Positions 17,666-42,594 of a DNA stretch of 64,000 nucleotides are shown here, piece by piece. The stretch is from an uncultured Gammaproteobacteria bacterium. Lineage in GTDB: Bacteria > Patescibacteriota > Patescibacteriia > Veblenbacterales > UBA10138. Below the pieces are notes generated by a model. It searched no databases and was not told the DNA's origin. It saw only the letters and a list, made by a program, of their open reading frames with translations. Positions within the stretch are counted from its first letter, which is position 1; every line of letters begins with the position of its first letter. The stretch covers positions 175,463 to 239,462 of the forward strand of contig CAYGDX010000001.1 of NCBI GenBank assembly GCA_964348825.1, written 5' to 3'. The translations under genes and the position numbers were made by a program.

Positions 17666-17701
17666 AAAATTTCGATATTCGGATTTTAATAAATTATTTA
17701 A

Positions 17702-23300: not shown

Positions 23301-26284
23301 TGGGTACGCGTTATAGTAAATTCTTTAATAAGTTGATTGAGTTTGAAGGTAAACAGCAAATGTTATATTTGGAAAAAGGTGCCGATGGCACAGTTTATAT
23401 TAATGCTGATAAAATTGCCCAGAATTTAGTAAAGAATGTTAATGAAGCGTTTGCTAAATTTGGCACTAACCCTGATGGAAGTCACGATTCTAAGTTACTA
23501 CATCTTAAAGAACAGTTAACAATGTGGGCTAGAAGTGGGGAGTTGCATAAACATTTGCAAGCCGCGATTATTCCAACCGAAAGTGCAAATCGGCAGGGCT
23601 TAAGTATGTTGGTTGATGGTGCGAGCGGTAATCATAAAATCGCTTTGCCACCGGGAATTTCTCGCCTTTTTACTACGCCAGAAAGTTTAAAGTATTTACA
23701 TCACCCTTTGCGTTATATAGAGTTGCGTCTTAATGGTCATACTTTAGCTACCAGTGTTGGCGGCGATATGCAAGCTGTAGCGCCTACGCCGATTGAAAAA
23801 ATTATAGAAACTCCGGTTCATCACACTGAAATTATCCCCACCGCGCATGACTTCGACGCACCACCAGTGTTACCATTTTATCCGAGGAAGGCGTTGGAGA
23901 GAACTCCAGAAAATCCTATTATATTGCCATATTATTTATATGGCGAAACAATGACACCAGAAAAAGAAGAACAAATAAGAAAACAATTATCAGAAACATT
24001 AAGGAGTAATCCCGACGCAAATTTGGATCATTATAAAGAAATTGAGGAGTATATTGGCAAATGGAATAGTGATTACCGTCAGGAAATAGAAAAGTTTGTG
24101 AGAGAAGTTGGCCCAATGAATGAAAAATGTCGTGTATCTGTTTGTATACCTGTAGCTGGTCACCAAGAGGGTAATAGTATTTACAAAACACTGGAAAATT
24201 ATTTAAATCAAACAATTGAGAAAGGAAATTTTGAAATAGTGTTATTTGTTAATCATCCTGAAAATGATGTAAATGGTAATAAAATTAGGCCGGATAATAC
24301 GCTGGAAGAAATAGAGCGTTTTAAAAAAGATTACCCGGGATTAAATGTTGTGACTATGTATAAATCTTTACCCTTGGAAGAGGTAAAGATTGGTTACATC
24401 AGGAAATTACTTAATGACACTGTATTAATGAGACATCATCAAAGAGGTAAGAGTGTTGAAGATTTAATAATTATTAGTAATAATGCTGATAATAAAGGTG
24501 TGGCGCCTGAATATATTAAAAATTTTGTTAATAAGTTTGATGAAAATTCTAATATTGATTCATATCTTGGTCAAGTGGATTGGGATCCAGAGGTTTATAT
24601 TAAAAATCCATTAGCTCATGTAGGGACTAGACTATTTCAATATATTAATATTCAAAATAGAAGCAAGGGTAGACACATTGAATCATCGGGTTGTAATTTT
24701 GCTCTAAGATCGAGTGTATATGCGGCAGTAGGTGGTTATGACGGTGAGGCGACACTAGGTGAAGATAATGAATTAGGTGCCGCAATTAAATATGGAAGAA
24801 AAAATGCCAGGGTTCACAAAGGTGTTGAATATGCTGGGGCAAGAGTTTCCAGAATATATTCATCCGCTAGAAGGATAGAGTATTCCCTAAAAAATGGGCT
24901 TTCACCTATAGAACAATGGGATAATGGTTTTAGTGCCTTTGATGATGAGGTTAGAAAAGTTAAATGGAATCTTAAGGGGAAGGCAATTGATTATGAAGAT
25001 GTGGATCAGGTAAAGTCTTTAATTAATGAGTTAGAAAATATTATTAATAGGACCATTAATAGAATGTCTAGTTGGGGTTTAGTATCCGACAGTCTAGTTT
25101 TTAAAAAATCTTTAGGTTGGTTGGGTATTAAATACGAAATGGTTGGCGACAAAAGAATAAAGATAATTAATGCTGATCGTTTGATTAGAGATTTAAAGGT
25201 GTATCAGAGTGATGGTTTATTGATAAGAGATTTGAAATTAGGTAAATCAGATGCCAAAGAAAAGTTGTCTAAATTGAAGAGTGAACGTAATATTGTTGAA
25301 AGTTCTGCATTAGAAAACAGATTAGTTGATTTTTACAAAAACGATCAGTTGATTTTGCATACTAATAGTGTTATTCCAAATCTAGACAAAATTAAAATCT
25401 CAGCAAATAAAAAAAAGGTGGGAGATATTTTGGTGGCTGATGATTTATCTATTTATAATGGAGATGATTCAAAAGTGTTAGCCGGTTATAAAGAGGGGGA
25501 AGATAAGGTTGTTATTCTTAAAGAAGTTGGAAGTAACACAATGATTAATCGTTTAGAAGAACAGGGCTGGTCAGGATATGGGTTAGAAGTGTCTAGTTTT
25601 GATAGTTATTTAAAGAAGAAGGGATTTTCAAATAAAAATGTTCTTTTAGCTGATGATGAGTTTTATGAAGTTAGTAAAAGTGGTTCACCTAAATTAGCAA
25701 GAATATATGAGCCGGCACTATCTGATTTACAAGGATTTTTAAATCGCGGTGGTAAATTAAGTATCAAAGAATCATTGTCAGTAATGATAAGAAGTTGTGA
25801 TGGAATCAATGGATTACATAAAAATAATATAGCTAATATAGATTTAGCACCATTAAACATTTTGGTTTTTAAAGATGGTATTAAAATTACTGATCTTGAC
25901 GGCTCCAGTATTTCTTCGGACGGTAATAAATTTATTAGAAAATCATTGGGATTAAATAGATTTATTTGTGCTCCAGAATTGTTTGGTAAGAATAATACTT
26001 TTGATAAGACAGTTGATGTATATGCGGCTGGTGCAAATTTATATTATCTTTTAACTGGTAAATGGCCTTATGATATTGATGCAGAGACAACAGGAATGAG
26101 TCGTGAAGAGGTCATGGATAAATATAAACCACTTCATATGTCTGGAAATATTGATATACCCTCTAACATACCAGTTGAATTGGGGCGTGTAATTAAAAAG
26201 GCCATGAGTCCTAATCCCACAGACAGATATCAAACTATCGAGGAATTAAATAATGAATTATTAAATATATACGAAAGTATTTAA
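20372..26284 (+). CDS. Giant multidomain membrane protein: N-terminal coiled-coil region, TM helices, GT2-family glycosyltransferase domain and C-terminal Hanks-type protein-kinase-like domain
   Basis: 1970 aa, uninterrupted.
- aa ~1-560 are Glu/Lys-rich coiled coil.
- Hydrophobic helices lie at about aa 598-653 (IVANPLAYGILGGVAGTFVG…GLIGIAGMAPWLAPIILGMGFGGAYL) and at about aa 807-826.
- aa ~1230-1520 have GT-A fold features (CRVSVCIPVAGHQEGNSI…EIVLFVNHPEND…SSGCNFALRSSVYAAVGGYDGEATLGEDNELG).
- aa ~1740-1970 carry kinase subdomains VIb to IX (NIDLAPLNIL as the catalytic loop, KITDLDGSS as a DFG-like motif, FICAPE as the APE motif, DVYAAGANLYYLLTGKWPY as subdomain IX).
- A hairpin plus T-run terminator follows at about 26371..26396. 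Confidence 0.8.
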   Translation: MERESPPINPQYEKYRVALERYLAQASPEAKAEAKRLIEEERRLERVEILQKLQDGLLVLKNISENQRTDHQKWVVGAVEGALGKIGDDGKYEIKAGENSQREGVPVDGLIKELEDFWHQAGARARELENEVRRLRQKHSDVLANWVREGATDITSEHQIKMAWQEVASGSSVEIKNQVDATRKTWATAGGIGDDYDPATGEYKLQSGEAMRQLVENKLVGEVRQAKNKTDALGGTRDFLIGKSKGYFEAHPEMKGDKQHWRTEYEAKFISRDFRSTGAVQTDYDKAMVEMSARRELVLPNLKVELPEVVPVVVEPTPASVEPISLQPEKPEAKRAYLINVSEVVKQYAHRQAELRLNELQKAEVKGFFKTIGSGFKKMWLNLGEEGYRRKFEKEILTEITSNKNLLAEIEARLGKSKSATTLESKGLNEKVLSDVIDRYQKEVAEAEEKGEVVVDARVNQEATKLFVEYAQGAITTREEFDKQVEEKILPLLAGRKFTLDSNYAKEAEKNKKDKIEMYANNYFELAKNYKTYIDKKLAEYPPDQRGKLIEHLKGELGLDLQLGFMRRDLEETKPQEVLKWYDKLVDFTQSIPIINKIVANPLAYGILGGVAGTFVGRGVKRFAVGKGLIGIAGMAPWLAPIILGMGFGGAYLSARRSRNLQYDRGMDLRRRALGAESGGERTDKMREFNYGIKRADEIVSALQAVRAKSGLTDADKEILGEVIARFKVEKERSVDLIGANIEEGSKHKTRIKSVTDVKYSLKQSLEKFGLKESDIQSFVDKHYKIFIDDIDNKDKLFNKFRHWEMGKAGVIGATMGLAGGAAGQYLWEQGQELFGFTPKTESAITHLMHYMKGEGSTAYAGAMQEIPIAALGEAAHHPTIKIPQGWSLSSAGESNHYDLINADGNKVSDIILNSDGTLDQGSLDELSASGFKVSDQVETVRTSVPDATVPAGKVNPLEAFKDQLGTHPRTDWHDELGTRYSKFFNKLIEFEGKQQMLYLEKGADGTVYINADKIAQNLVKNVNEAFAKFGTNPDGSHDSKLLHLKEQLTMWARSGELHKHLQAAIIPTESANRQGLSMLVDGASGNHKIALPPGISRLFTTPESLKYLHHPLRYIELRLNGHTLATSVGGDMQAVAPTPIEKIIETPVHHTEIIPTAHDFDAPPVLPFYPRKALERTPENPIILPYYLYGETMTPEKEEQIRKQLSETLRSNPDANLDHYKEIEEYIGKWNSDYRQEIEKFVREVGPMNEKCRVSVCIPVAGHQEGNSIYKTLENYLNQTIEKGNFEIVLFVNHPENDVNGNKIRPDNTLEEIERFKKDYPGLNVVTMYKSLPLEEVKIGYIRKLLNDTVLMRHHQRGKSVEDLIIISNNADNKGVAPEYIKNFVNKFDENSNIDSYLGQVDWDPEVYIKNPLAHVGTRLFQYINIQNRSKGRHIESSGCNFALRSSVYAAVGGYDGEATLGEDNELGAAIKYGRKNARVHKGVEYAGARVSRIYSSARRIEYSLKNGLSPIEQWDNGFSAFDDEVRKVKWNLKGKAIDYEDVDQVKSLINELENIINRTINRMSSWGLVSDSLVFKKSLGWLGIKYEMVGDKRIKIINADRLIRDLKVYQSDGLLIRDLKLGKSDAKEKLSKLKSERNIVESSALENRLVDFYKNDQLILHTNSVIPNLDKIKISANKKKVGDILVADDLSIYNGDDSKVLAGYKEGEDKVVILKEVGSNTMINRLEEQGWSGYGLEVSSFDSYLKKKGFSNKNVLLADDEFYEVSKSGSPKLARIYEPALSDLQGFLNRGGKLSIKESLSVMIRSCDGINGLHKNNIANIDLAPLNILVFKDGIKITDLDGSSISSDGNKFIRKSLGLNRFICAPELFGKNNTFDKTVDVYAAGANLYYLLTGKWPYDIDAETTGMSREEVMDKYKPLHMSGNIDIPSNIPVELGRVIKKAMSPNPTDRYQTIEELNNELLNIYESI

Positions 26285-26429: not shown

Positions 26430-26618
26430 ATGACAAACTTTTTAACCACTTACTTACGTGGGGCGTGGGAAGAGATGAAAAAAGTGGCTTGGCCCACCAA
26501 GCGTGAAATTACTCAACACACTATGTTGGTGATTGGTATTTCGGTGGTAGTGGCTTTGTTTTTAGGCGCGCTCGACTATATTTTTAACTTTGGGCTGGAA
26601 CAGTTGTTGTATAAGTAA
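26430..26618 (+). CDS. secE: Preprotein translocase subunit SecE
   Basis: 62 aa with a single TM helix, directly upstream of nusG. N-terminus MTNFLTTYLRGAWEEMKKVAWPTKRE is SecE-like. Confidence 0.8.
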   Translation: MTNFLTTYLRGAWEEMKKVAWPTKREITQHTMLVIGISVVVALFLGALDYIFNFGLEQLLYK

Positions 26619-26626
26619 TTAATATC

Positions 26627-26715
26627 ACTGGAACATTAGATCACTAGATCATAAGAACAAAAAATTCTTTATTAATAATGTTCTAATGTTTAAATGTTCT
26701 AGTGTTCTAATGAAT
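26627..26715. repeat. Intergenic word repeat family A copy upstream of nusG
   Basis: See 17577..17665. Confidence 0.75.
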
Positions 26716-26744
26716 AAGATTTAGAATTTAGGATTTAAACAACT

Positions 26745-27290
26745 ATGTCTCGACAAGAAACACAAACTAATAAACGTTGGTACGCAATTCATACCTATTC
26801 AGGTTATGAAGAAAATGTGTCGCGTAATTTAAAACAGCGTATTGAATCCATGGATATGGGTGATAAGATTTTTAATGTGCTAATTCCGACTGAAAAAAAA
26901 ATTCGCATTAAAAATGGTAAGCGCAAAGTAATGGAAGAAAAAATATTCCCGGGTTACGTACTGGTAGAAATGATGGTAACTGATGATTCTTGGTACGTGG
27001 TGCGTAATACCCCCAATGTTACCGGTTTTATTGGCTCGGGTACCACACCTACACCTATCGCAGAAGAGGAAATAAAATCCATTCAAAAACGCATGGGTAT
27101 TGAAGAACCGAAATATCAAATTGATGTTACCGAAGGTACGCCAGTGCGTATTACCGATGGACCATTTAGGGACTTCGAAGGTAAGGTGGCGGAAGTAGAT
27201 GAAGCTCGTGGTAAGATTAAAGTACTGGTTTCGGTATTCGGTCGCGAAACGCCAGTGGAACTTGATTCATTGCAGATTCAGAAACTTTAA
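26745..27290 (+). CDS. nusG: Transcription termination/antitermination factor NusG
   Basis: 181 aa. NGN domain (KRWYAIHTYSGYEENV) and C-terminal KOW (GTPVRITDGPFRDFEGKVAEVD). Conserved secE-nusG-rplK-rplA order. Confidence 0.92.
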   Translation: MSRQETQTNKRWYAIHTYSGYEENVSRNLKQRIESMDMGDKIFNVLIPTEKKIRIKNGKRKVMEEKIFPGYVLVEMMVTDDSWYVVRNTPNVTGFIGSGTTPTPIAEEEIKSIQKRMGIEEPKYQIDVTEGTPVRITDGPFRDFEGKVAEVDEARGKIKVLVSVFGRETPVELDSLQIQKL

Positions 27291-27392
27291 ATTAAGCTTG
27301 AAGTTCGAAGTCATTAGTTCGTAGTTTTTTGCTTCTAAATACTATGACTTATAAGCTTTGAATTATTGACTAATAACTAATAACTAAATTTT

Positions 27393-27818
27393 ATGGCCAA
27401 GAAAATTAAAACAGTTATCAAATTACAAATCCCAGGTGGCAAAGCCAATCCGGCGCCTCCAGTGGGTCCGGCTTTAGGTCAGCACGGTTTGAACATCCAA
27501 GATTTTTGTGTGAAATTCAATGCCGCGACTAAAGATAAAATGGGTGATATTACACCAGTAGAAATCACCGTGTATGAAGATCGTACTTATACTTTTATTT
27601 TAAAAACCGCACCAGCGGCTGAATTGTTAAAGAAAGCGGCTGGTATTACCAAAGGTTCAGGTAAACCATTGCAAGATAAGGTTGGTAAAGTAACCAAAAA
27701 ACAAATCGAAGAAATTGCTAAGGTTAAAATGCCAGATTTGAATGCCAATGATATTCCAGCGGCCATGAAAATTATTGAAGGCACAGCACGGCAGATGGGC
27801 ATCACGGTTGAGGGCTAA
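27393..27818 (+). CDS. rplK: 50S ribosomal protein L11
   Basis: 141 aa ([43 protein letters not shown]…). Confidence 0.95.
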
Positions 27819-28154
27819 AGCCCGAAAGTGAGTGAATAGTTTCACTCACGTGCCGTGAGGCGGGCAAGCCGATGCCTGTGGCCGGATTGCCCCGGGACGT
27901 AAATTTGGTATTAATTTAGAGCTCATGCGCCTAATGTCATTGCGAGTCCGAGCGTCAAGCACGAGGGCGAAGGAATCTACCAAAATCACTAATGGCTAAT
28001 TTCTAATTTCTAAAAAATTCCAATCCGCCAGCTGGCGGACCAATATCCAAAATTTAGTTATTAGACATTAGTCATTTTTAGAAATTATTTATTAGAGATT
28101 AGAAATTTATAGTTTTTAGGATTTTGACATTTGAAATTTTAATATAACTTAATC

Positions 28155-28200
28155 ATTATTGGTGGGAGGTGAAAAACCGTTTGCACCACCTAAGGAAAAT
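28155..28200 (+). promoter_or_regulatory. Possible L1 autoregulatory leader hairpin immediately upstream of the rplA start
   Basis: ggtgggaggtgaaaaaccgtttgcaccacc (28161..28190) forms a stem-loop with a GGGAGGUG-type internal motif, followed by Shine-Dalgarno aagga and ATG. L1 binds a 23S-rRNA-mimicking site on rplA/rplK mRNAs in many bacteria and archaea. Confidence 0.3.
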
Positions 28201-28205
28201 ATTTT

Positions 28206-28889
28206 ATGTCTAAACGAGGTAAGAAATATGTTGAAGCTGTGAAATTGGTTCAAGTGGGCAAGGCCTATGAACCGAGTGAGGCTGTGAAGTTACTCAAGCA
28301 AATGCCAGCACGAAAGTTTGATATGTCGGTGGAAGTGCATATGAAGCTGGGGGTAGATGTAAAACAAGCTAATCAACAAGTGCGTGGTAGCACAGTATTA
28401 CCACACGGTTTGGGTAAAACCAAGCGCGTGGCAGTTTTTTGTGAAGATGCCAAAGCTTCGGAAGCCAAAGCCGCTGGAGCAACTATTGTTGGCGGTGAAG
28501 AATTAATTAAAGAAATTCAAACTACCGGCAAATGTGATTTTGATGTCGCAGTAGCCACGCCTGAAATTATGAAAAAAATGGCACCGATTGCAAAAATTTT
28601 AGGTCAAAAAGGTTTAATGCCTAATCCTAAAACTGAAACTATCACGAATGATATTGCTAAAACAGTAGAAAATTTGAACAAAGGTAAGGTGAGTTTTAAA
28701 ACCGATGCCACTGCTAATATTCACCAAATGATTGGTAAAATTTCGTTTGATGAGCAGAAAATTTTGGAAAATTTTAATGCCTTGCTTGAAGTAGTGCGCC
28801 GCGTTAAACCAGCTGGCGCTAAGGGTATTTATATTCGCAGTTGTACTTTAAATGTTTCAATGGGACCGGGGATTAGAGTGAAAGTATAG
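28206..28889 (+). CDS. rplA: 50S ribosomal protein L1
   Basis: 227 aa (…KFDMSVEVHMKLGVDVKQANQQVRGSTVLPHGLGK…). Confidence 0.95.
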   Translation: MSKRGKKYVEAVKLVQVGKAYEPSEAVKLLKQMPARKFDMSVEVHMKLGVDVKQANQQVRGSTVLPHGLGKTKRVAVFCEDAKASEAKAAGATIVGGEELIKEIQTTGKCDFDVAVATPEIMKKMAPIAKILGQKGLMPNPKTETITNDIAKTVENLNKGKVSFKTDATANIHQMIGKISFDEQKILENFNALLEVVRRVKPAGAKGIYIRSCTLNVSMGPGIRVKV

Positions 28890-28920
28890 TTGGCAAATAG
28901 CTAATAGCAAATGGCAAATA

Positions 28921-28950
28921 GATAGGCGTCATTCCCGCGTAGGCGGGAAT
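28921..28950 (+). repeat. Short palindromic unit (gtcattcccgcgtaggcgggaatctagaa) just downstream of rplA
   Basis: One of about 10 copies. Others lie at 13651..13680 (inverted), 54889..54922, 56503..56531, 57344..57375, 58213..58278 (with an internal insertion), 62143..62172, 63643..63672 (inverted) and two inside 6490..6572. The stem is ATTCCCGC/GCGGGAAT with a variable 4-5 nt loop and compensatory changes (cccac/gtggg). Confidence 0.8.
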
Positions 28951-28954
28951 CTAG

Positions 28955-29085
28955 AAACTAAAATTTCAAATGACAAATGTCAAATTTCAAATCAAATCCA
29001 AAATTATAATGTTAAAATTTTTAATCATTTAGTCATTTGACATTGATTTGTTATTTGGATTTTGACATTTGAAATTAAATACTTC
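28955..29085. repeat. Intergenic word repeat family D (atttcaaatgtcaaat / tttgacatttgaaat) upstream of dcd
   Basis: Built from ttgacatttgaaat words in both orientations. Related copies lie at 28120..28140, 62225..62285 and 63560..63600. Confidence 0.7.
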
Positions 29086-29141: not shown

Positions 29142-29717
29142 TTGACTAAACAAATGATTCTCTCTGATCGTGATATTAAAGTCGCCATTGCCGATGGCAA
29201 AATAAAAATTGAACCGCTTTATGATGGTGCACTTCAACCCGCTTCAGTCGATTTACATTTGGGTACGAAATTTTTGATTTTTAGAAATTCAGAGCACGCT
29301 TTTATTGATGTTCGTGAGCCAATTGCTAATTTAATGGAAGAAGTGGAAATCTCGGGTGATAAGCCATTTATTATTCATCCCGGTGAATTTGCTTTAGGTG
29401 TAACTGTAGAAAAAGTTACCTTATCAGCCGATATGGTGGGGCGACTAGAAGGTAAATCTTCGCTTGGCCGAATTGGTATTATTATTCATGCCACCGCTGG
29501 GTTTATTGACCCAGGTAATTCACTTAAGCCAACTTTAGAACTTCACAATATTGGGAGTTTACCAGTGAAGCTTTATGCAGATATGCCGATTGCGCAAATT
29601 GCTTTTATGCCGCTATCCTCACCAGCCGAAAATACTTATGGTAAGGGGCGAAAATATTTTGGCGCGGAAATTCCGCAGGCCAGTAAAATGCACGAGAATT
29701 TTAAAAAACCTAGCTAG
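29142..29717 (+). CDS. dcd: dCTP deaminase
   Basis: 191 aa (MILSDRDIKVAIADGKIKIEPLYDGALQPASVDLHLG…). Dcd/Dut superfamily with a Dcd-type N-terminus. Confidence 0.88.
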   Translation: MTKQMILSDRDIKVAIADGKIKIEPLYDGALQPASVDLHLGTKFLIFRNSEHAFIDVREPIANLMEEVEISGDKPFIIHPGEFALGVTVEKVTLSADMVGRLEGKSSLGRIGIIIHATAGFIDPGNSLKPTLELHNIGSLPVKLYADMPIAQIAFMPLSSPAENTYGKGRKYFGAEIPQASKMHENFKKPS

Positions 29718-29737
29718 TTACTAGGTTTTATTTTATT

Positions 29738-30295
29738 ATGAAAGGTGGAATGAAAATTATTAGTATAATTGGTGAACCGCTCTCGGGAAAAAAGACCGTT
29801 ACTGATTTTTTGGTAAAGAAATATGGATATAAACAGTTTACTTATTCTGATTTATTGACTAGTATTTTAAAGATTTTGAATTTACCGTTAATTCGTCCCA
29901 ATTATGCCAATTTAGCAATAGCACTAAGGGAAAGATTTGGCGGTAGTATTTTATCTCAAGTATTGTTAGATAAGGCTAAGAGTAAAAAATTGAAAAAGAT
30001 TATTTTAGATGGGGCTAGGCATCGAGCAGAGGTTGATTATCTAAGAAAGATGCCGGGTTTTATTTTAATTTATGTTACCGCCTCAACGAAGGTTAGGTAT
30101 TTGAGATCAATTAAGCGCAGGGAGAAATCGAATGAGGGTAAGATGACTTTTAAAGAATTTAAAAAGGAAGGCCGTTTGGCTACTGAACTAGAATTTAAAC
30201 ATATGAGTAAGGGAGCAATTAAAATTGTTAACAACGGCACATTGCGCGATTTAGAAAAACTGCTCAATCAAAAAATGTTAAATAATTTAAGATGA
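29738..30295 (+). CDS. P-loop nucleoside/(deoxy)nucleoside monophosphate kinase-like protein
   Basis: 185 aa. Walker A at the N-terminus (IISIIGEPLSGKKTVTDFLVKKYGYKQFTYSDL) and a later DGARH segment, reminiscent of dNMP-kinase/adenylate-kinase-like folds. Placed between dcd and dut. Ends in TGA. Confidence 0.5.
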   Translation: MKGGMKIISIIGEPLSGKKTVTDFLVKKYGYKQFTYSDLLTSILKILNLPLIRPNYANLAIALRERFGGSILSQVLLDKAKSKKLKKIILDGARHRAEVDYLRKMPGFILIYVTASTKVRYLRSIKRREKSNEGKMTFKEFKKEGRLATELEFKHMSKGAIKIVNNGTLRDLEKLLNQKMLNNLR

Positions 30296-30347
30296 TTAAT
30301 AAAACATAAGTAAAAAATTAGATCTAAAAAATCAAATTACTAAAATT

Positions 30348-30785
30348 ATGCTAGAAGCAATTGTTCTTGAAGTCAAAAAACTTGACCCCCGCGCCAAATT
30401 ACCCGCCTACGTTTACGAGGGTGATGCAGGGTTGGATTTTTTTTGCTTAGATGATTGTACTGTGCCGGCGGGCAAGCGTTTGGCCGGAATTCGCACTGGC
30501 ATGGCCATTGCCATTCCGGAAGGGTATGTAGGCCTATTTTGGGATAAATCAGGCCTAGCGGCTAATTTTGGGCTTAAGGTAATGGCTGGCGTGATAGATG
30601 CAGGTTACAGAGGTGAAATTAAGCTAACGTTATTTAATACTAGTACCGAGGATTACAATTTCAAAGCCGGTGATAAAGTAATGCAAATGTTGGTGCAAGC
30701 TGTGGAAAGAGTGGAAGTAGAAGAAGTAAAAGTGTTATCTCCCTCAATCCGTGGCGAGGGTGGTTTTGGGAGTACTGGAAAATAA
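30348..30785 (+). CDS. dut: dUTP diphosphatase
   Basis: 145 aa with the five Dut motifs (AGLDFF…, GLFWDKSGLA, VIDAGYRGEI, C-terminal GGFGSTG). Confidence 0.9.
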   Translation: MLEAIVLEVKKLDPRAKLPAYVYEGDAGLDFFCLDDCTVPAGKRLAGIRTGMAIAIPEGYVGLFWDKSGLAANFGLKVMAGVIDAGYRGEIKLTLFNTSTEDYNFKAGDKVMQMLVQAVERVEVEEVKVLSPSIRGEGGFGSTGK

Positions 30786-30838
30786 AAATCCCCTCTGACG
30801 TTAAAAGGGGATTTGTTGTTTTTAATGATTCAACAATT

Positions 30839-31735
30839 TTATGATGGAGATACAAGATCTTTATAACAAAGAAACCGTTGGATAATTTTAGCCAAATTTA
30901 ACCCGACTTTTTCCGCTTCTTCAGTGACTTCGTTTTCGGTTGCCGGATTTAATTTTCCACTATTTGATAAGATATTAGTGATTATAGAAAATCCAACTAC
31001 TGGTATTTTGAAACTGGCAGCAACCTTGGCTTCTGGTATGACTGACATTCCAACTGCGTCGCAACCACTTTGTTTCAAGAATTCTATTTCGGTTTGATTT
31101 TCATAGCATGGTCCGGTTACAGCGACTAAGATACCTTGTTGAAGTATAAATCCTAGTTCTTTAGCAGATATGTAAGCAATACCGCTTAGGTGATAGTTAT
31201 ACAGATTTGAAGTATCAGGGAACCTTACAGTGTTGGGAAAAAGAGGGCCAATTAATGGGTCGGGTATGAAAAATGAATTATGGTTACGGACCAACATTAT
31301 ATCGCCGACTTTGTAGTTAGGGTTGATACCACCAGTGGCATTAGTGGTTACGACAAGTTTGACGCCCAACCAAAGTAGTGTTCGGAGTAAAAAGGTAACT
31401 TCAAACATTGAGTAACCTTCGTAACAATGAAACCGTCCGACCATGGCCACCACATTTTTTTCACCCAATTGACCGAAAACTAATTTTCCATTTTCGTGTT
31501 GTGGTGCGGTTGGTGTAGGGCAGTGTGGGATATCTTTATAAAAGATTTCCAGTGGATTTTTAATTTCATTAGCTAATACACTTAATCCTGTGCCACAGAT
31601 GATGACTATATTAGGCAGAGGAAGTGCCACTCTTAATTCACAGTGGGTTTCAAGTTCAGGATCAAGCTGTTTTTTTATAAATAAACCCGCTTCTCCAACC
31701 TTTGTTAATTGTTCTTTAGAAGATAAATATTGCAT
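30839..31735 (-). CDS. Purine nucleoside phosphorylase / MTA phosphorylase family (trimeric PNP-I type)
   Basis: 298 aa. Trimeric-PNP signature GRFHCYEGY, plus VTTNATGGIN and AVGMSVIPEA. Confidence 0.8.
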   Translation of the reverse strand: MQYLSSKEQLTKVGEAGLFIKKQLDPELETHCELRVALPLPNIVIICGTGLSVLANEIKNPLEIFYKDIPHCPTPTAPQHENGKLVFGQLGEKNVVAMVGRFHCYEGYSMFEVTFLLRTLLWLGVKLVVTTNATGGINPNYKVGDIMLVRNHNSFFIPDPLIGPLFPNTVRFPDTSNLYNYHLSGIAYISAKELGFILQQGILVAVTGPCYENQTEIEFLKQSGCDAVGMSVIPEAKVAASFKIPVVGFSIITNILSNSGKLNPATENEVTEEAEKVGLNLAKIIQRFLCYKDLVSPS

Positions 31736-31832
31736 TGTTAAGTTCCTATATTGTGATTTGTGGTTTTATTGATTTTTTAGTATCTTATAACTAGCTGGTT
31801 TAATTGTCAATCTTTCAATTTACGAAGCTAAT

Positions 31833-32705
31833 ATGAAAACCTATTTAGATATTGTAAAAAACGTTTTGGAAAATGGAGAAAAAGTTGCCACACGGCAAGG
31901 TACTCCCGCCTATACCATTGCTGGTGCTATGTTTGAACACGACATGTCAAAAGGTTTTCCACTACTCACCACAAAAAAAGTGCCGTTTCGTTTGATTGCC
32001 ACAGAATTAGAATTTTTTATAAATGGTATTACTGATAAAAAATGGCTTATCGATCGTAATAATCATATCTGGGATGAATGGGCTAGTCCTACCAAAGCGC
32101 CTTATGGACATGATGAAATTTCAAAACAGAGAATGCTTGCCGAGCGCGACTTAGGGCCGATTTATGGTTTTCAGTGGCGACATTTTAATGCGCCTTACGA
32201 AAATTATGATTCAGATTATACAGGTAAGGGAATAGATCAATTAAAAAAAATAGTTGAAACATTAAAAACAAATCCACGCGATAGGCGAATGATTGTAAAT
32301 GCTTGGAACCCTCTACAGCTAGCAGAAATGGGTTTGCCACCATGCCATTACTCTTTTCAAATTACAACCATAGGCAATAAACTTAATTTAATGTGGAACC
32401 AGCGTTCAGTGGATACTATGCTCGGACTACCTTTTAATATAGCAAGCTATGCTTTGCTCCTGCATCTTCTAGCCAAAGAAACTGGTTTTGAAGAAGGTAA
32501 GTTGGTTGGCTTTTTGGCTGATGTGCATATTTTTGAAAATCATACAGATGGTGCCAAAGAACAGCTATCTCGGGATCCTGTCAAATACCCATTACCAAAA
32601 ATAGAAACTACTAATTGGGAATCAATTTATAATTGGAAGGCCGAGAATACAAAACTTTTAGATTACCAAAGTTATGATAAAATTCCATTTCAAATAGCTA
32701 TTTAG
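31833..32705 (+). CDS. thyA: Thymidylate synthase (ThyA-type)
   Basis: 290 aa. R…TGT motif, DLGPIYGFQWRHF, catalytic PPCHYSFQ and LGLPFNIASYALL (Asn at the dUMP-specificity position). Carries an insertion relative to E. coli ThyA. Confidence 0.9.
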   Translation: MKTYLDIVKNVLENGEKVATRQGTPAYTIAGAMFEHDMSKGFPLLTTKKVPFRLIATELEFFINGITDKKWLIDRNNHIWDEWASPTKAPYGHDEISKQRMLAERDLGPIYGFQWRHFNAPYENYDSDYTGKGIDQLKKIVETLKTNPRDRRMIVNAWNPLQLAEMGLPPCHYSFQITTIGNKLNLMWNQRSVDTMLGLPFNIASYALLLHLLAKETGFEEGKLVGFLADVHIFENHTDGAKEQLSRDPVKYPLPKIETTNWESIYNWKAENTKLLDYQSYDKIPFQIAI

Positions 32706-32713
32706 CCATTACT

Positions 32714-33235
32714 ATGACTTTTTCAATTATTGCCGCGGTGGATAAGAATATGGGGATTGGGCTTAAAAATGCTCTGCCGTGGCGCCTAAAGGGCGATATG
32801 GATCATTTTAAGCAGATTACGGTAAATACTGCCTCGGGTAAGCAAAACGCGGTTATAATGGGGAGCAATACTTGGGCTTCATTACCGGAAAAATTTAGAC
32901 CACTGCCCGAACGTTTAAATTTAGTATTAAGCTTCCAACCACTTGATTTACCAGCGGGAGTTTTGTTTGGTAGTTCGCTTGATAATGCGCTTGAACAATT
33001 AAGTAGTCGCTCTGATATTAATGAAATTTTTGTGATTGGTGGTGCTCGAGTTTATGCCGAAGCAATTAATCATCCAGCTTGCGTAAAAATTTATTTAACT
33101 GAGATTGATAAGGTCTTTGAATGTGATACTTTTTTTTCAAAATTGCCTGATAAATTTAAATTAGTGGAATCATCTGCGTTAGTAAAAGAGGGTGATATAT
33201 CATACTTATTTAATCGTTACGATTTGATTAATTAA
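32714..33235 (+). CDS. folA: Dihydrofolate reductase
   Basis: 173 aa (IIAAVDKNMGIGLKNALPWRLKGDMDHFKQIT…VIMGSNTWASLP…VIGGARVY). Confidence 0.88.
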   Translation: MTFSIIAAVDKNMGIGLKNALPWRLKGDMDHFKQITVNTASGKQNAVIMGSNTWASLPEKFRPLPERLNLVLSFQPLDLPAGVLFGSSLDNALEQLSSRSDINEIFVIGGARVYAEAINHPACVKIYLTEIDKVFECDTFFSKLPDKFKLVESSALVKEGDISYLFNRYDLIN

Positions 33236-33384
33236 AAATATTTAATGTTAAGTCCACCGTTGGGCTTTTTTTGTTATGTTGACAGAAAAAATTAGAATTG
33301 CTAACATCCGTTTATAATTAAAATTGTACAAAAAAATAAACATAAATTCAAGATATTTAACAATCAAAATAAAGGATAAAAACA

Positions 33385-33915
33385 ATGGATGTTTTAACTA
33401 ATGTTCACGCTGTATCAGTCACGAGTGTTGGCTCAGCAAGCAAAACACAACACGCGCTTGATTTGTTATTTGAATATCAAAAAAGAGAAGAGAAAATTGA
33501 AATTATGGTTTTTGATATTTCTCCCCAAAAAGAAATCCCTTCTGATTTATTAGATTATGAACAAAAGCCATTTTTTAAATCAGTGCCAAGTTTAGCCGAT
33601 GTATTAGTACACGTTGAGGAAATTCAACCCTCAGGTATTGTGATTAATAATATTCACTTTGCTTGTAAAAAAGAAAATTCGTATCAAAAGGTTATGCGTC
33701 AGCTTTATGCAATTGCCGAAAAATTAGATGCGTTTGGTTTTTTGCGGGCGAATTTTTCATTGATGATTATTACCGGTCGCGAAGAAACAGAAGACGCTCA
33801 CAACAACGAAGCCACTCAAGCCGTGATTGGTTTTTGTGGGAAAAGAATAACCTTGGGCTCTGATTTTCCGAGAACATTTTTAGTGCCGGAGGAATTTAAA
33901 ATACCAAAAAAATAA
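33385..33915 (+). CDS. Hypothetical protein
   Basis: 176 aa, no recognisable family. Followed by a hairpin plus T-run terminator (33942..33976). Confidence 0.4.
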   Translation: MDVLTNVHAVSVTSVGSASKTQHALDLLFEYQKREEKIEIMVFDISPQKEIPSDLLDYEQKPFFKSVPSLADVLVHVEEIQPSGIVINNIHFACKKENSYQKVMRQLYAIAEKLDAFGFLRANFSLMIITGREETEDAHNNEATQAVIGFCGKRITLGSDFPRTFLVPEEFKIPKK

Positions 33916-33941
33916 ATGATCAAATAATTTTTTAATATACC

Positions 33942-33976
33942 GAAGTCCGCAAAAATCAAGTGGACTTCTTTTTTTA
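33942..33976 (+). terminator. Intrinsic terminator
   Basis: gaagtcc-gcaaaaatcaagt-ggacttc followed by T7. Confidence 0.6.
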
Positions 33977-34000
33977 TTATTTTTTTGCTATTATCAAGCT

Positions 34001-34687
34001 ATGCTAAAATCAAGTAAATTTATCTTAATTGAAGGTACCGACGGTTCGGGTAAGGGTACACAGGTGGGATTATTGCGTAGGGCCTTGAAGCGCCAAGGTT
34101 ATAAAGTGGAAGTGATTGATTTTCCACAATACAATAAACCATCAGCTTATTTTGTGGCTAAGTATTTAAATGGTGGTTACGGTACGTCGGTTGAGGTGGG
34201 TGCTTACCGTGCGTCATTATTTTATGCTTTAGATAGATACGACGTTGTGCCACAAATAAAAAAATATTTAACTGAAGGTAAAATTGTAATTGCTAATCGT
34301 TTAACTTTGTCTAGCGCAGCGCATCAAGGTGGTAAAATAAAATCAAGTCGTGAACGTAAAAATTTTTGGCGATGGTTATTTGATTTAGAGTATAATTTAC
34401 TAGGCATTCCACGCCCTAACTTAACAATTGTTTTGCATATGCCGGCGAAAGTAGCTCAAAAATTAGTAGATAAAAAAGCTGCGCGGCGGTATTTAAAAAA
34501 AGGTAAACGTGATATTCACGAAGCGGATATCAAGCATCTTAAAGCGGCTGAGAAAACTTATTTAGAGTTAGCTAAATTACAAAAGGCGCAGCTAGTGGAG
34601 TGTGTGGAAAAGGGGCAACTATTGACACCAAATGAAATTCATAATAAAATAATAAAAATAATTCACAAAAATAAAATCATAAAATAA
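34001..34687 (+). CDS. tmk: Thymidylate kinase
   Basis: 228 aa. P-loop FILIEGTDGSGKGTQ, a DRY motif (LDRYDVV) and a lid region. Confidence 0.88.
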   Translation: MLKSSKFILIEGTDGSGKGTQVGLLRRALKRQGYKVEVIDFPQYNKPSAYFVAKYLNGGYGTSVEVGAYRASLFYALDRYDVVPQIKKYLTEGKIVIANRLTLSSAAHQGGKIKSSRERKNFWRWLFDLEYNLLGIPRPNLTIVLHMPAKVAQKLVDKKAARRYLKKGKRDIHEADIKHLKAAEKTYLELAKLQKAQLVECVEKGQLLTPNEIHNKIIKIIHKNKIIK

Positions 34688-34698
34688 AGGGTCACAAC

Positions 34699-35052
34699 AT
34701 GCAAGAATCTATTAACTCACTATTTTCTTTGTTAAAAGAAGGCAATATTGATGGTTTTAAAGATCATCTAAGAAATATGTTTAGTTGTGAAGAGTTGGAC
34801 GACAATGAAAGACATTTTACAGTTTTTCGCGAGGAATGTAAAAAATTGTTTTCCAAAAAAAACCACACTACTTGTCAGGAGATTAAAAACGTACTTCAAA
34901 AGATTAATACTAAATTTTCTGAATTTACCAGCAACAGATTTGCCAAGTGTTTTATTCGTACTTTGGTAGAGCATGTTAACTCTGGTTGTAGGAATGGGTG
35001 CTACACTGCAGTACATTCCGCAGCATTCAATGCTGGGATATTTAGTAATTAA
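34699..35052 (+). CDS. Hypothetical protein
   Basis: 117 aa, Cys-containing, no recognisable family. A terminator-like hairpin follows (about 35080..35115). Confidence 0.3.
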   Translation: MQESINSLFSLLKEGNIDGFKDHLRNMFSCEELDDNERHFTVFREECKKLFSKKNHTTCQEIKNVLQKINTKFSEFTSNRFAKCFIRTLVEHVNSGCRNGCYTAVHSAAFNAGIFSN

Positions 35053-35152: not shown

Positions 35153-36604
35153 ATGAAGCTTACACCAGTAATCGGGCTGGAAATACATGTTCAGCTCAAA
35201 ACCAAATCCAAAATGTTTTGCACCTGTGATAATGCGGGTGAGAACCAACCAGCAAATACTACTATTTGTCCGGTGTGTTTGGCGCACCCCGGTACTTTGC
35301 CAGTGCCCAACCGTGCGGCCATTGAACTAGGGGTTAAAGCGGCTTTGGCTTTGAATTTACAAATTAATTTACATTCTAAATTTGATCGCAAAAATTATTT
35401 TTATCCTGATTTACCAAAAGGGTATCAAATATCACAATACGATGAGCCCTTGGCGCAGAATGGTTATTTGGATATTCAAGTGGGTGATGAAGCTAGGCGA
35501 GTTGGTTTGGAGCGGTTGCATTTAGAAGAAGATACTGCCAAATTACTTCACGTGGCAGGGAAGTCGCTGGTAGATTTTAATCGAGCTGGCACACCACTGG
35601 CTGAAATTGTTACTAAGCCGGAAATTAAAAGTCCAACTGAGGCCAAAGTATTTTTACAAGAATTACGTTTAATAATGCGCACTTTGGGGGTAAGCGACGC
35701 TGATATGGAAAAAGGTCATTTGCGCTGTGATGCTAATATCTCATTGCGACCTGAAGGTGATAATAAATTTTATCCTAAAACTGAAATTAAAAATTTAAAT
35801 TCTTTCCGGAGTGTGGAAAAAGCTTTGCATTATGAAATTGAGCGACAAACAAAATTATGGGCCGAGGGCGGTGCGCCACAAATTACTTCCACGCGTGGTT
35901 TTGATGATAAAAAAGGTATAACAGTTTTACAACGTACCAAAGAAGCAATTCATGATTATCGTTATTTTCCCGAGCCCGATATTCCACCGCTTGAAATAAC
36001 ATCCGAGCAAATTGAAGAGTGGCGCGCTTCCTTACCAGAATTACCAAGCGTAAAACGTTTACGTTTGGTTAATGATTTTGGATTATCTCCCAAAGAAGCT
36101 GAATTATTACTTGATGATGAGAGTTTGGGATGTTTAGTAGGAAAAGTGTCAGCCGAACTTGCGCCTGAATTGGAAGGTGATGTAAAAGCGGCTTCAAAAT
36201 TAACTTTTAATTGGTTGGCTAATAAATTGACCGCGATTTTGCGAGAGAAAAATTTGAGTTTAGAACAAGTTGATTTTGATACTAAAAAATTAGTAAGTTT
36301 TTTACTTTTGATTGCACGGCGCCAAGTGAATTCTACTAACGGGCAAGTGCTCTTACGTAAAATGATTGAAACGGGTAAAGAACCGTTGCAAATTATAGCG
36401 GATGACGATTTGGGGCAGAATGAAACAGGGGATTTGGAAACAGTAGTTTCTGACGTGATTGTCCAATTCCCAGATCAAGTGGCGCAATTTAAAGCCGGTA
36501 AAGAACCAGTGATAAAATTTTTACTCGGTGCGGTAATAAAGGCCACGCGTGGTAAAGCCGATCCAATTTCAGCGGAAGAAGTTTTGCGTAAAATGTTGAA
36601 GTAA
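35153..36604 (+). CDS. gatB: Aspartyl/glutamyl-tRNA(Asn/Gln) amidotransferase subunit B
   Basis: 483 aa (MKLTPVIGLEIHVQLKTKSKMFCTCDN…CDANISLRP…) with a C-terminal YqeY-like tail. Confidence 0.95.
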   Translation: MKLTPVIGLEIHVQLKTKSKMFCTCDNAGENQPANTTICPVCLAHPGTLPVPNRAAIELGVKAALALNLQINLHSKFDRKNYFYPDLPKGYQISQYDEPLAQNGYLDIQVGDEARRVGLERLHLEEDTAKLLHVAGKSLVDFNRAGTPLAEIVTKPEIKSPTEAKVFLQELRLIMRTLGVSDADMEKGHLRCDANISLRPEGDNKFYPKTEIKNLNSFRSVEKALHYEIERQTKLWAEGGAPQITSTRGFDDKKGITVLQRTKEAIHDYRYFPEPDIPPLEITSEQIEEWRASLPELPSVKRLRLVNDFGLSPKEAELLLDDESLGCLVGKVSAELAPELEGDVKAASKLTFNWLANKLTAILREKNLSLEQVDFDTKKLVSFLLLIARRQVNSTNGQVLLRKMIETGKEPLQIIADDDLGQNETGDLETVVSDVIVQFPDQVAQFKAGKEPVIKFLLGAVIKATRGKADPISAEEVLRKMLK

Positions 36605-36768
36605 TTTAAAGTATTAGTATCATTTATATTTTTATTTTTGTACTAATGTGCCGCGCCCAGTACTCTCTGTAGTGCTGGGTTAACACGTTGATACAAAGAA
36701 AATTGACAATTTTACTAGTGGTGGTAGAATGGGTGAAATTGTTATTTAGAAAAAATGTATATTAAAAA

Positions 36769-37437
36769 ATGAAAAGGTGGTGTAATGAAATGAAATGTTA
36801 TATATATGAAAATAAAGAATTAAGAAATTATATTTGTAAATGTGATGGCACTTCTAATATTTTATTGTATTTAGTTGTAAATGCCAAAATAGTGAGTGTT
36901 TGTCGAAACTGTGCGGTGGGCAATAATTACTATTGCGATAAACACGAATGTGTGACGCATGACTTAGACGATGGGAAAATTTGCCCACAGTGTGTATCTA
37001 ATTTAGCGGAACGTGAATACAATCAAGTAATAATTCGTCGCGTTTATCGGTTAATGAAAAGAATTCTTTCAGTTGATCAATTTGAATCTTTATCTAGTTG
37101 GGTGCAACTTGCTTGTGGAATTGAGCCACGTTCTACATCTTGGGCTATTTGGTGGATTTTTCAAGCTAAAGTACTACGTAGTGGACTTGAATTGCAGATA
37201 GTAATAGATAAATTTAAAATCAATCGTTCACTTTTATATCTTATTCCATTTAATGATAATATTTCCCCACAAGATTTATTGGAGTTAAAAGCTTTTATTT
37301 TTGGAAGAGCTTTGCATGATGAACCGATATCGCTAACTGAAGCAAAATGGCGTTTGACAATATCGCAGTTGAAACGAAATAAAATTACAATAGCTGAAAT
37401 TGCGCATGAATTTTCAAGCGCTAAAATAACAGATTAA
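36769..37437 (+). CDS. Cys-rich hypothetical protein (putative zinc-binding N-terminus)
   Basis: 222 aa. The N-terminal 80 aa contain about 12 Cys in CxC / CxxC arrangements (…YICKCDG…CRNCAVGNNYYCDKHECVTHDLDDGKICPQCV…). The block is conspicuously AT-rich, bounded by a terminator (37440..37477) and a MITE copy. Confidence 0.45.
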   Translation: MKRWCNEMKCYIYENKELRNYICKCDGTSNILLYLVVNAKIVSVCRNCAVGNNYYCDKHECVTHDLDDGKICPQCVSNLAEREYNQVIIRRVYRLMKRILSVDQFESLSSWVQLACGIEPRSTSWAIWWIFQAKVLRSGLELQIVIDKFKINRSLLYLIPFNDNISPQDLLELKAFIFGRALHDEPISLTEAKWRLTISQLKRNKITIAEIAHEFSSAKITD

Positions 37438-37537
37438 TACCCAGTTTTTTGCGAGGCAAAACTGGGTTTATTTTTATTTTGTCATTTCCATGTCATTCGA
37501 CATCAAGCTCATAACCTAGAGGAAAACGGGGAACCGT

Positions 37538-37698
37538 GCCGCCCTGTCGTAGGGTTTGTACAGAGCGCAAGGCAGACGAACGTCCGACTCGCCCGTGTTT
37601 GTGGTCGCTTGGCATAGGGCGAGTCAGTTCGTCTGACGAGCACTGTTCAAACCTGGAGACCGAGGCGGCGATTTTGTGTTACTTTATAAAAAGTAACA
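37538..37698 (+). mobile_element. MITE-like repeat family 1, copy 2 (between the Cys-rich ORF and miaA)
   Basis: Same element. It generates the spurious ORF 37536..37781, whose translation MPPCRRVCTERKA… recurs in the 58508 copy. Confidence 0.65.
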
Positions 37699-37806
37699 AA
37701 ATAAAAAATAATCTTAATTCCCACCATAGCGGGGCAAGTTGGATTCTCGTTTCTCTCCTTCGTTATAAAGTTACGGAGTGACAAGTTGTGAATACGGCAG
37801 TGCAGT

Positions 37807-42293: not shown

Positions 42294-42478
42294 CCAAGTT
42301 TCCAGCCTTCGCTTTAGAGCTATGGCGGACTCTTAAAATTGTCTGTACGTTTAGGTTTGCCTAAGCAAACTTCGCTTATTATAGCGATTAATGGTTGGTA
42401 GTCATTACGATAGCGTACGTTATTAGATTATATTTAAAGAGAATATTTGTCAATTTTTAGAAGCTGGAAGATAGAATA

Positions 42479-42594
42479 CCCGCCTGCCGAAGCTATTTAA
42501 CTTAGTTACGGCAAGGTGATTATTAAGCTTAAGTTAATTATTGAAAGTTATAAAATTAAGTTGCGGCTAGCGGCGGGCAGGTAGAAACTAGAAT
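42479..42594 (+). mobile_element. MITE-like repeat family 2, standalone copy
   Basis: About 115 bp, AT-rich interior, GC-rich imperfectly inverted termini (cccgcctgccgaagct … gctagcggcgggcaggtag). A second copy is nested at 60205..60312. Confidence 0.5.

Follow-up and report, generated by a model that had tools for sequence, protein, structure and literature searches.

Is a compact set of thymidylate-synthesis genes in a reduced genome an acquired module or a property of the lineage that carries it, and what does an extra P-loop kinase do among these genes? We asked this of a 5.5-kb cluster at positions 29142-34687 of a 64-kb window from a member of the candidate phyla radiation (CPR, or Patescibacteria), where dcd, the kinase gene, dut, a purine nucleoside phosphorylase (PNP) gene, thyA, folA and tmk lie together. 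An earlier note on this DNA had called such clustering unusual in a reduced genome, had suggested a co-transferred or co-regulated module, possibly fed with salvaged nucleosides through the PNP, and had pointed to the kinase as the interesting piece. The window is the whole 64-kb stretch that was analysed, and all positions refer to it unless a locus is named; L002-L025 are related loci in metagenome or metagenome-assembled genome (MAG) assemblies, and P-numbers are sampled proteins.

Every open reading frame (ORF) that the note had named, the two small unknown ones included, was present at its coordinates, and curated profiles confirm the identities of dcd, dut, the trimeric-type PNP, thyA, folA and tmk. 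The dCTP deaminase gene dcd (29142-29717, plus strand) scored 187 bits with TIGR02274 against a cut-off of 92.8 and matched PF22769 with an E-value of 1e-44; an independent gene call placed an alternative start at 29154, giving a product of 187 residues. Downstream on the same strand stand the gene of the 185-residue kinase (29738-30295) and the dUTPase gene dut (30348-30785; TIGR00576, 133 bits against a cut-off of 102.55). The PNP gene, of the trimeric PNPH/PunA/XapA type, lies on the minus strand at 30839-31735 (NF006054, 242 bits against 218) and is followed on the plus strand by thyA, which encodes a 290-residue thymidylate synthase (31833-32705; TIGR03284, 265 bits against 108), and by folA, which encodes dihydrofolate reductase (32714-33235; PF00186, 124.5 bits against 25). 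The thymidylate kinase gene tmk (34001-34687, plus strand) scored 80 bits with PF02223 against a cut-off of 27 and 115 bits with NF005923, and fell marginally under the cut-off of TIGR00041 (78.2 against 83.25). With these identities the pathway logic drawn in the note, from dCTP by way of dUTP, dUMP and dTMP to dTDP, holds: Dcd converts dCTP to dUTP, Dut converts dUTP to dUMP, ThyA together with FolA makes dTMP from dUMP, and Tmk phosphorylates dTMP to dTDP.

Synteny of the cluster among Patescibacteria

Comparison loci were located in CPR/Patescibacteria assemblies through the closest relatives of the kinase, and the window proteins were placed on them by tblastn. The set comprised 20 distinct loci with the kinase gene, one from a DPANN archaeon and the others spread over several Patescibacteria lineages, and in 18 of them the kinase was linked to dTMP-pathway genes; given this linkage, the clustering is far beyond chance. 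The linked loci come from MAGs labelled Saccharibacteria, Doudnabacteria, Peregrinibacteria, Parcubacteria and Moranbacteria, plus unlabelled CPR.

The order nusG-L11-L1-dcd-(dut)-kinase-tmk, with thyA-folA nearby, recurs in the Saccharibacteria- and Doudnabacteria-labelled MAGs (L005-L014). Variants of this order were kinase-dcd-kinase in a Peregrinibacteria locus (L015), L1-kinase-dCMP deaminase-second kinase in a Parcubacteria locus (L018), dCMP deaminase-thyX-kinase-tmk in L019, and kinase-dCMP deaminase-thyA-folA-dcd-gatB in a Moranbacteria locus (L020). The layout of the window itself, dcd-kinase-dut-(slot)-thyA-folA-tmk-(slot)-gatB, is matched exactly in the closer relatives L002, L021 and L024/L025, and a looser form of the same backbone in the same position is found in L005-L014, L018 and L020. 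The upstream boundary of the operon is conserved: nusG, rplK (ribosomal protein L11) and rplA (L1), which occupy 26745-28889 on the plus strand of the window, lie directly 5′ of dcd in L005, L006, L008, L010-L014, L018, L021 and L024 by tblastn. The conserved downstream boundary is gatB (35153-36604, plus strand), which lies 3′ of the cluster in L002, L020, L021 and L025, and miaA is also among the neighbours that flank the cluster.

Nothing in the composition of the cluster sets it apart, with GC content of 0.29-0.41 in 600-bp windows and 0.32-0.41 per 2-kb window across the low-GC stretch as a whole. Additionally, dcd, dut, folA, tmk and gatB have diverged between the window and L021 in step with the ribosomal proteins. 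We conclude that a tight dTMP cluster is the norm in the CPR lineage and not an acquired island, contrary to the earlier view that it would be unusual in a reduced genome. The stretch is probably a vertically inherited CPR/Patescibacteria operon for thymidine-nucleotide supply, set between nusG-rplK-rplA and gatB and including a predicted deoxynucleoside monophosphate (dNMP) kinase.

The kinase family and its predicted substrate

The kinase passes only catch-all Pfam models (AAA_17, 36 bits). The best curated model is NF006226 (PRK08356, "hypothetical protein"), which aligns with residues 3-178 over model positions 3-188 of 195 at 68 bits; because the equivalog cut-off is 189 bits, the kinase is a relative of NF006226 and not a member. 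All 63 sampled family members match this model over its full length, with a best E-value of 2e-30. An exhaustive HMMER search returned 5,295 representatives at E ≤ 1e-3, 1,855 at E ≤ 1e-10 and 137 at E ≤ 1e-30, whereas a word-indexed search had found only four clusters. Members come from Magasanik-, Uhr-, Doudna-, Moran-, Gracili-, Buchanan- and Parcubacteria and carry the public names hypothetical protein, AAA family ATPase or, by automatic labelling, dephospho-CoA kinase. Three lineages have two paralogs each (L007 2606-3712, L015 355-2208 and L018 5977-7683), placed side by side or flanking dcd or the dCMP deaminase gene, and such pairing suggests subfunctionalisation, for example for different dNMP substrates. 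No second paralog was found in the window.

The protein has the P-loop N-terminus that the earlier note had described. Its AlphaFold2 model (pLDDT 85) has the strand and helix order of adenylate kinase (AK) and the fold of a nucleoside monophosphate (NMP) kinase with a short LID. The top solved match in Foldseek was SSO1041 bound to AMP (TM-score 0.68-0.75), followed by AK1 and UMP/CMP kinases, at a probability of 1.00, and the profile built from the 63 family sequences matched SSO1041 over its full length at an E-value of 2e-26 as compared with 6e-9 for AK1. Residues conserved in the family are G12, G17, K18, R53, N55, R64, G92, R94, R120, R123, R127 and N165, which include a P-loop GxxxxGK in the style of adenylate kinase (G12 through G17-K18), a phosphate-binding DGxR motif (G92, R94) and a short Arg-rich LID (R120, R123, R127). 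All of them but G12 and G92 are listed as invariant or nearly so. A phosphotransferase that acts on a phosphate acceptor is expected to have such residues, and the protein is probably an active ATP-dependent kinase.

Named families of the same fold did not accept the window protein. For adenylate kinase it scored 15.7 bits against a cut-off of 26.8 with PF00406, 15.7 against 168 with TIGR01351 and 23 against 284 with TIGR01360; for (d)CMP kinase it scored 25 bits against 102.1 with TIGR02173, and TIGR00017 was matched weakly by only 3 of the 63 members. AK1 and UMP/CMP kinase do share the fold and the motif order, P-loop GxxxxGK, then DGxR, then an R...R...(K/R)xDD LID, yet their E-values reach only 6e-9 to 1e-5, and the Arg of their GDxxR motif is missing in the kinase. 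The note had also raised non-nucleotide kinases as a case that would overturn its proposal; for shikimate and gluconate kinases the window protein has no Pfam or NCBIfam match, and these enzymes ranked only 38th-47th in Foldseek (TM-score 0.47-0.53), far below the NMP kinases. We found no sign of a viral origin, in that neither tblastn against 50,697 phage genomes nor a pattern scan of IMG/VR returned a relative.

The closest known protein by both sequence and fold is SSO1041 of Sulfolobus solfataricus (UPF0200; PDB 3LW7 and 3H0K), described in its PDB deposition as adenylate kinase-related and AdkA-like. It shares with the kinase a size of ~180 residues, the P-loop, a DGxRxxxE motif and the short Arg-rich LID, and it differs in being archaeal, without an assigned function, crystallised with AMP and only ~23% identical; it also keeps an Arg, absent from the CPR family, after its SD motif (SDVVRKR). 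In archaea, TK1334 and TK2192 (arCOG01045) are P-loop kinases of ~21-22 kDa resembling dephospho-CoA kinase (DPCK) that were purified, showed no DPCK activity and were left without a function (Shimosaka et al., PMC6650551). The N-termini encoded by the primers resemble SSO1041 in one case (MIVIVTGMP...) and PRK08356 and the CPR family in the other (MEAGKMIIG...), and together with the UPF0200 and PRK08356 matches this leads us to infer that TK1334 and TK2192 are archaeal counterparts of the kinase family. Within the literature library that was searched, we found no paper mentioning UPF0200 or SSO1041, found arCOG01045 only in PMC6650551, and found none that links Patescibacteria with cytidylate kinase. 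We conclude that the kinase belongs to a large and genuinely uncharacterised family of the NMP/dNMP-kinase class, not to a new kind of system, and with its coherent deoxynucleotide context it deserves the attention that the note had given it.

Five independent lines, each of them indirect, point to deoxynucleotides as substrates. The first is the neighbourhood. The kinase lies immediately beside tmk in 10 distinct loci and beside dcd or a dCMP deaminase gene in at least 10, and the linkage survives a change of route, from dcd and dut to dCMP deaminase and from thyA to thyX (the latter in L019). The second is an opposing enzyme. A YfbR-like HD-domain 5′-deoxynucleotidase gene is divergent from the kinase gene in L003 and L005, and a candidate for it in L006 is an ORF of the same size in that position; E. 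coli YfbR acts on dNMPs. The third is a fusion, P0024 (376 residues, on a 1.3-kb Logan contig), in which the kinase (residues ~3-180) is joined to a dUTPase (~200-340).

The fourth line comes from phage relatives. PHROG 139, annotated as deoxynucleoside monophosphate kinase and, like all PHROGs, without a curated cut-off, was matched over the full length by the first (E-value 8e-19) and second (3e-16) kinases of L018 and by P0024 (5e-20); the window kinase matched it at 1.9e-11 in two stretches, the best of which covers residues 4-46 only. Viral fold matches in BFVD were mostly annotated as dNMP kinase (TM-score 0.65-0.73). The genomic setting is also shared with a phage enzyme. In T4, the gp1 gene stands with other genes of dNTP synthesis, beside those for dCMP deaminase, thymidylate synthase, dihydrofolate reductase and dUTPase, and the CPR kinase gene is found beside genes for the same four enzymes. 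T4 gp1 differs from the kinase in its length (241 residues against 185) and in a sequence match confined to the P-loop, and the CPR gene is cellular and part of a housekeeping operon. The likeness to phage-type dNMP kinases proposed in the note stands at the level of profile and fold, and does not extend to the Pfam family of T4 gp1.

The fifth line is a defence relative. NF041025 models an anti-phage dCTP deaminase, and 48 of the 63 members match its N-terminal kinase domain (model positions ~2-206); residues 1-178 of the L015 kinase align with positions 3-205 of the model at an E-value of 2e-11. Both proteins are coupled to deamination of deoxycytidine nucleotides; however, the NF041025 kinase is fused to a domain of the cytidine-deaminase fold and sits in a defence locus, whereas the CPR kinase stands alone in a housekeeping operon beside Dcd, which has the dUTPase fold, or beside dCMP deaminase. 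From context and homology, the substrate of the kinase would be a deoxynucleotide, probably a deoxypyrimidine dNMP.

The kinase is thus predicted to be an ATP:(d)NMP phosphotransferase that would work beside Tmk. Its acceptor would most likely be a deoxypyrimidine such as dCMP, or several dNMPs as for the phage enzymes. Dcd needs dCTP, and the general view is that CPR bacteria live on nucleotides obtained by salvage. An enzyme specific for dCMP, or one accepting dNMPs broadly, would carry salvaged dCMP through dCDP into the dCTP pool, and Dcd, Dut, ThyA with FolA, and Tmk would then convert part of that pool to dTDP. A dCMP kinase would also be sensible in the lineages with dCMP deaminase, because dCMP is a branch point there, and in the P0024 fusion dCMP activity is favoured because a dUMP kinase would cycle futilely with the dUTPase.

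Several points weigh against a deoxypyrimidine dNMP kinase. The specificity is read from context and remote homology, and the closest solved relative, SSO1041, holds AMP and not a deoxypyrimidine. The Arg of the adenylate-kinase GDxxR motif is absent, with YSDLLT in the window protein where AK has TGDMLR, so the acceptor site differs from that of classical NMP kinases. The Pfam model of T4 gp1 (DNMK, PF21448) reached 24.5 bits against a cut-off of 27.1 and covered residues 6-44 only, which is the P-loop region, and the T4 gp1 structure 1DEK aligns with the family profile at positions 5-44 only. Two family members, in L017 (Gracilibacteria) and L016 (the DPANN archaeon), are not linked to the pathway; the neighbours of the L016 gene encode a YchF-like GTPase and GlmS and are uninformative. 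A dCMP kinase is not strictly needed for dTMP where the dCMP-deaminase route is used or where ribonucleotide reductase supplies dCTP. Finally, the only other nucleotide kinase gene visible in the 64 kb is pyrH (57479-58186), which encodes a UMP kinase of the amino-acid-kinase fold in the usual rpsB-tsf-pyrH arrangement.

In a serious alternative, one compatible with a dNMP kinase, the kinase acts later or more broadly, either by phosphorylating (d)NDPs such as dTDP or dCDP to the triphosphate or as a general adenylate/NMP kinase that replaces a missing Ndk or Cmk. We regard this as unlikely, though with real arguments on its side. The commonest immediate neighbour is tmk, and the kinase gene lies directly upstream of it in 10 distinct loci, an adjacency that fits consecutive steps from dTMP through dTDP to dTTP. 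To make the dCTP used by Dcd, dCMP and then dCDP must each be phosphorylated, the fold is nearest to AK1-type enzymes and AMP-bound SSO1041, and NMP kinases of Thermotoga maritima are reported to accept (d)NDPs (PMC10248530). Against it, the adenylate kinase, UMP/CMP kinase and Cmk models all remain far under their cut-offs, as given above for TIGR01351 and TIGR02173, and a missing ndk or cmk is an assumption made from a view that spans the 64-kb window.

It has also to be considered that the protein is mainly a nucleotide sensor or regulator of Dcd, Dut or dCMP deaminase, with a fast turnover that would stem from conflict with phages or hosts. The NF041025 matches of the 48 members would suit such a role, as would the fusion or adjacency of the family to enzymes of the dUTPase fold and to deaminases and the swapping of the kinase between strains that are otherwise 93-99% identical (see below), a pattern common for conflict genes. 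We consider this improbable. The NF041025 matches are weak, the best having E-values of ~2e-10 to 2e-11 and lying far under the 400-bit cut-off, the phosphotransfer-type residues are all conserved in both kinase subtypes, the setting in most CPR lineages is a housekeeping operon, and of defence genes only an AbiEii fragment, at the end of L020, is adjacent.

There is similarly little reason to expect a dephospho-CoA kinase (CoaE) that completes CoA salvage and occupies the operon by accident. Many members do carry that label in the automatic JGI annotation, 45 of the 63 match TIGR00152 weakly (best E-value 4e-10), and DPCK structures appear in the fold list with TM-scores of 0.50-0.58. The window protein, however, scores 14.3 bits with TIGR00152 against a cut-off of 65.55 (E-value 0.028, with no stretch passing), PF01121 (cut-off 27) is not reported for it, and the CoaE matches are mostly to the P-loop. 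At none of the 20 loci does a CoA-pathway gene neighbour the kinase gene, and the DPCK-like TK1334 and TK2192, if they are kin as their N-termini suggest, were without DPCK activity (PMC6650551). The consistent linkage to the dTMP pathway and the fusion to dUTPase would also be left unexplained.

Gene replacement, variable slots and repeats

Although the cluster as a whole is conserved, its parts have not all followed the organism. A search with ThyA located L021, which belongs to a nearly identical organism and is colinear with the window at 84-92% DNA identity. NusG, L11 and L1 are 98.6-99.4% identical between the two, Dcd 96%, GatB 95%, ThyA 94%, Dut 93%, Tmk 87% and FolA 85-86%, while the kinase in the same slot is only 46% identical. 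DNA similarity is lost between positions 29703 and 30326, an interval that coincides exactly with the kinase gene (L021 6512-7523). The kinase of L002 is nearer to that of the window (67% identity), although L1 of L002 is only 61% identical and Dcd 74%, and the kinase of L021 falls in a group with P0006 and P0154 (55-58% identity). The conserved residues listed above are all kept in both subtypes. The swap is a cassette-like xenologous replacement.

A comparable history is seen for thyA. Identity of the window ThyA reaches 90% with the L022 protein and 84% with the L023 protein (P0343, labelled Nomurabacteria), two loci that share only 60-63% identity with the window in NusG and L11 and 36-39% in FolA. 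With the ThyA of the closer relatives L025 (NusG 87%) and L002 the window protein shares only 36%; these two relatives have another type of ThyA, with 64% identity between them. Across hundreds of Patescibacteria ThyA sequences the identity to the window protein is 81-94%, and the named ones are labelled Nomurabacteria or Paceibacterota; the window allele is of the Paceibacteria type. FolA, by comparison, is 54% identical to L025 and 51% to L002, and it follows organismal relationships as the native lineage allele. The affinity of ThyA to a distant class, set beside this native signal of folA, indicates that thyA alone was replaced in situ. Tmk, for its part, is 47-59% identical over the related loci. 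We conclude that the scaffold is stable and that its parts are exchanged among CPR lineages.

Further differences lie in slots between the core genes. Between dut and thyA, the window has the PNP gene within a 1045-bp insertion, L021 has nothing (dut leads straight to thyA), L002 has a PurK-like ATP-grasp gene (2301-3497, minus strand), and L024/L025 have a 175-residue protein (L024 5607-6134, minus strand) with a non-significant match to nucleoside 2-deoxyribosyltransferase (E-value 0.059). An ArsR-type regulator occupies the thyA-folA slot in L021 only. At the folA-tmk junction, the window alone carries an insertion of ~820 bp with an orphan ORF of 176 residues (orf176; 33385-33915, plus strand), and folA abuts or overlaps tmk in L021 and L002. 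The tmk-gatB slot holds an orphan ORF of 117 residues in the window (orf117; 34699-35052, plus strand), ORFs of 121 residues in L025 and 76 residues in L002, and in L021 a 310-residue NAD-binding-like protein together with thymidine kinase (PF00265; 11568-12212). Neither orf176 nor orf117 has a match in Pfam, NCBIfam, PHROGs, PDB sequences or the related loci, even the near-identical L021.

The PNP was proposed in the note as part of the module, and we reject this. It is absent from all related loci, its relatives in the metagenome collection are at most 44% identical, and none of 51 loci that carry such a relative has any other gene of the cluster; it is a strain-specific insertion.

These movements of single genes, by swap for the kinase, by replacement for thyA and by insertion for the PNP, together with dispersed-repeat copies 5′ of dcd (28891-29077) and 3′ of gatB and orf222, are what can be said for horizontal co-transfer of the whole 5.5-kb cluster as a deoxynucleotide-supply island, which we judge highly improbable, because the backbone order and the rplA-gatB position are kept from near-identical strains to other CPR classes, the core genes diverge alongside the ribosomal proteins, and the dispersed repeats occupy ~20 intergenic regions of the window and so are not specific island boundaries. 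Housekeeping genes flank the cluster on both sides, the window ORFs that were scanned contain no integrase or transposase domain, and no tRNA gene was found in the window. The note had named synteny in related genomes and ordinary composition as grounds for giving up co-transfer, and with both observed the proposal is refuted. Island membership failed by composition, by mobile-element or tRNA borders and by absence at the same position in relatives. The transfer idea is therefore wrong for the cluster as a whole and right for several of its parts.

Transcription signals were scanned by consensus. A terminator-like, GC-rich hairpin with an 11-pair stem and T-runs, a consensus match only, lies at 30786-30814 between the convergent dut and PNP genes, a terminator-like site follows folA (33250-33267), and a promoter-like site precedes orf176 (33279-33307). 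Since promoter-like sites are no more frequent in the window (33) than in shuffled sequence (32.2), the boundaries of transcription units are only suggested by these signals.

Dispersed repeats are a general feature of this DNA. The first family is intergenic, ~170-190 bp long and present in ~12 copies in the 64 kb, at 15235-15407, 28891-29077, 37532-37719, 42478-42584, 53661-53817, 54887-55130, 56476-56619, 58504-58675, 60103-60394, 62104-62281 and 63504-63696; a copy in L021 (7310-7543) sits directly after the swapped kinase gene. The divergent copy at 28891-29077, between rplA and dcd, is 74% identical to that at 62104-62281 by self-blastn and has partial matches at 54888-54926 and 56502-56606. 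The repeat is predicted to fold as an imperfect hairpin of ~150 nt with a small 3′ hairpin, compensatory changes from copy to copy occur at 13 of the 54 predicted pairs, and the copy at 60103-60394 has an insertion of ~100 nt in the apical loop. It had no Rfam match, nor did Rfam at gathering thresholds detect a known RNA family anywhere in the window. This family could be an element similar to miniature inverted-repeat transposable elements (MITEs) or repetitive extragenic palindromes (REPs), or it could be a multicopy structured RNA. A second dispersed intergenic family of ~100-147 bp has five copies in both orientations (818-917, 5149-5257, 14119-14191, 17546-17692 and 26596-26742), and a third repeat is a 57-bp inverted pair at 7023-7079 and 36639-36695, with one copy just after gatB.

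Elsewhere, the window has mainly housekeeping content: the atp operon, an AlkD-like gene, an AddA-like helicase-nuclease gene, pheST, gyrB, nusG-rplK-rplA, gatB, miaA, thrS, dnaE, ftsW, prmC, prfA, rpsB-tsf-pyrH, gap and pgk. After gatB lies orf222, a cysteine-rich ORF of 222 residues (36769-37437) without a match in Pfam, NCBIfam or PHROGs; it is 91% identical in L021 and is thus likely a real lineage-specific gene. An ORF of 1970 residues (20372-26284) has a C-terminal Ser/Thr protein kinase domain (residues 1784-1959) as its only recognisable domain, with no Pfam match in the first ~1780 residues, and the interval 24001-26000 has both the lowest GC content (0.319) and the highest GC skew (0.38) of the window. 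A 489-residue protein (10214-11683) has only a C-terminal mobile domain of PEP-utilising enzymes. Three paralogs of the same architecture lie inside the dTMP cluster of the Saccharibacteria-labelled L008, between dut and the kinase gene (4376-9256).

Possible implications for CPR and archaeal nucleotide metabolism

The comparison corrects a tempting misreading of the dTMP cluster as an acquired island, and it provides a clean natural example of in-situ xenologous displacement inside a conserved operon of ultra-small genomes. It also gives a concrete candidate function, a dNMP kinase for deoxypyrimidine supply, to a family that has been labelled hypothetical protein, AAA ATPase or dephospho-CoA kinase, and by homology the same clue extends to the archaeal P-loop kinases of PMC6650551.

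A broader reading is possible and we put it forward tentatively. The CPR kinase and the archaeal UPF0200/PRK08356/arCOG01045 proteins, which are reported from nearly all archaea, may together form an unrecognised and very widespread class of cellular deoxynucleotide kinases, a non-orthologous counterpart of Cmk, Ndk or both, related to the phage dNMP kinases, the gene for which would pass between strains as a cassette within an operon that is fixed in other respects. If this is true, the "dephospho-CoA kinase" in many metabolic reconstructions of CPR and archaea would be a misannotation, and the CPR operon would be the functional clue that has been missing. Because CPR bacteria are thought to depend on salvage, kinases that feed their dNTP pools matter for metabolic models of these organisms.

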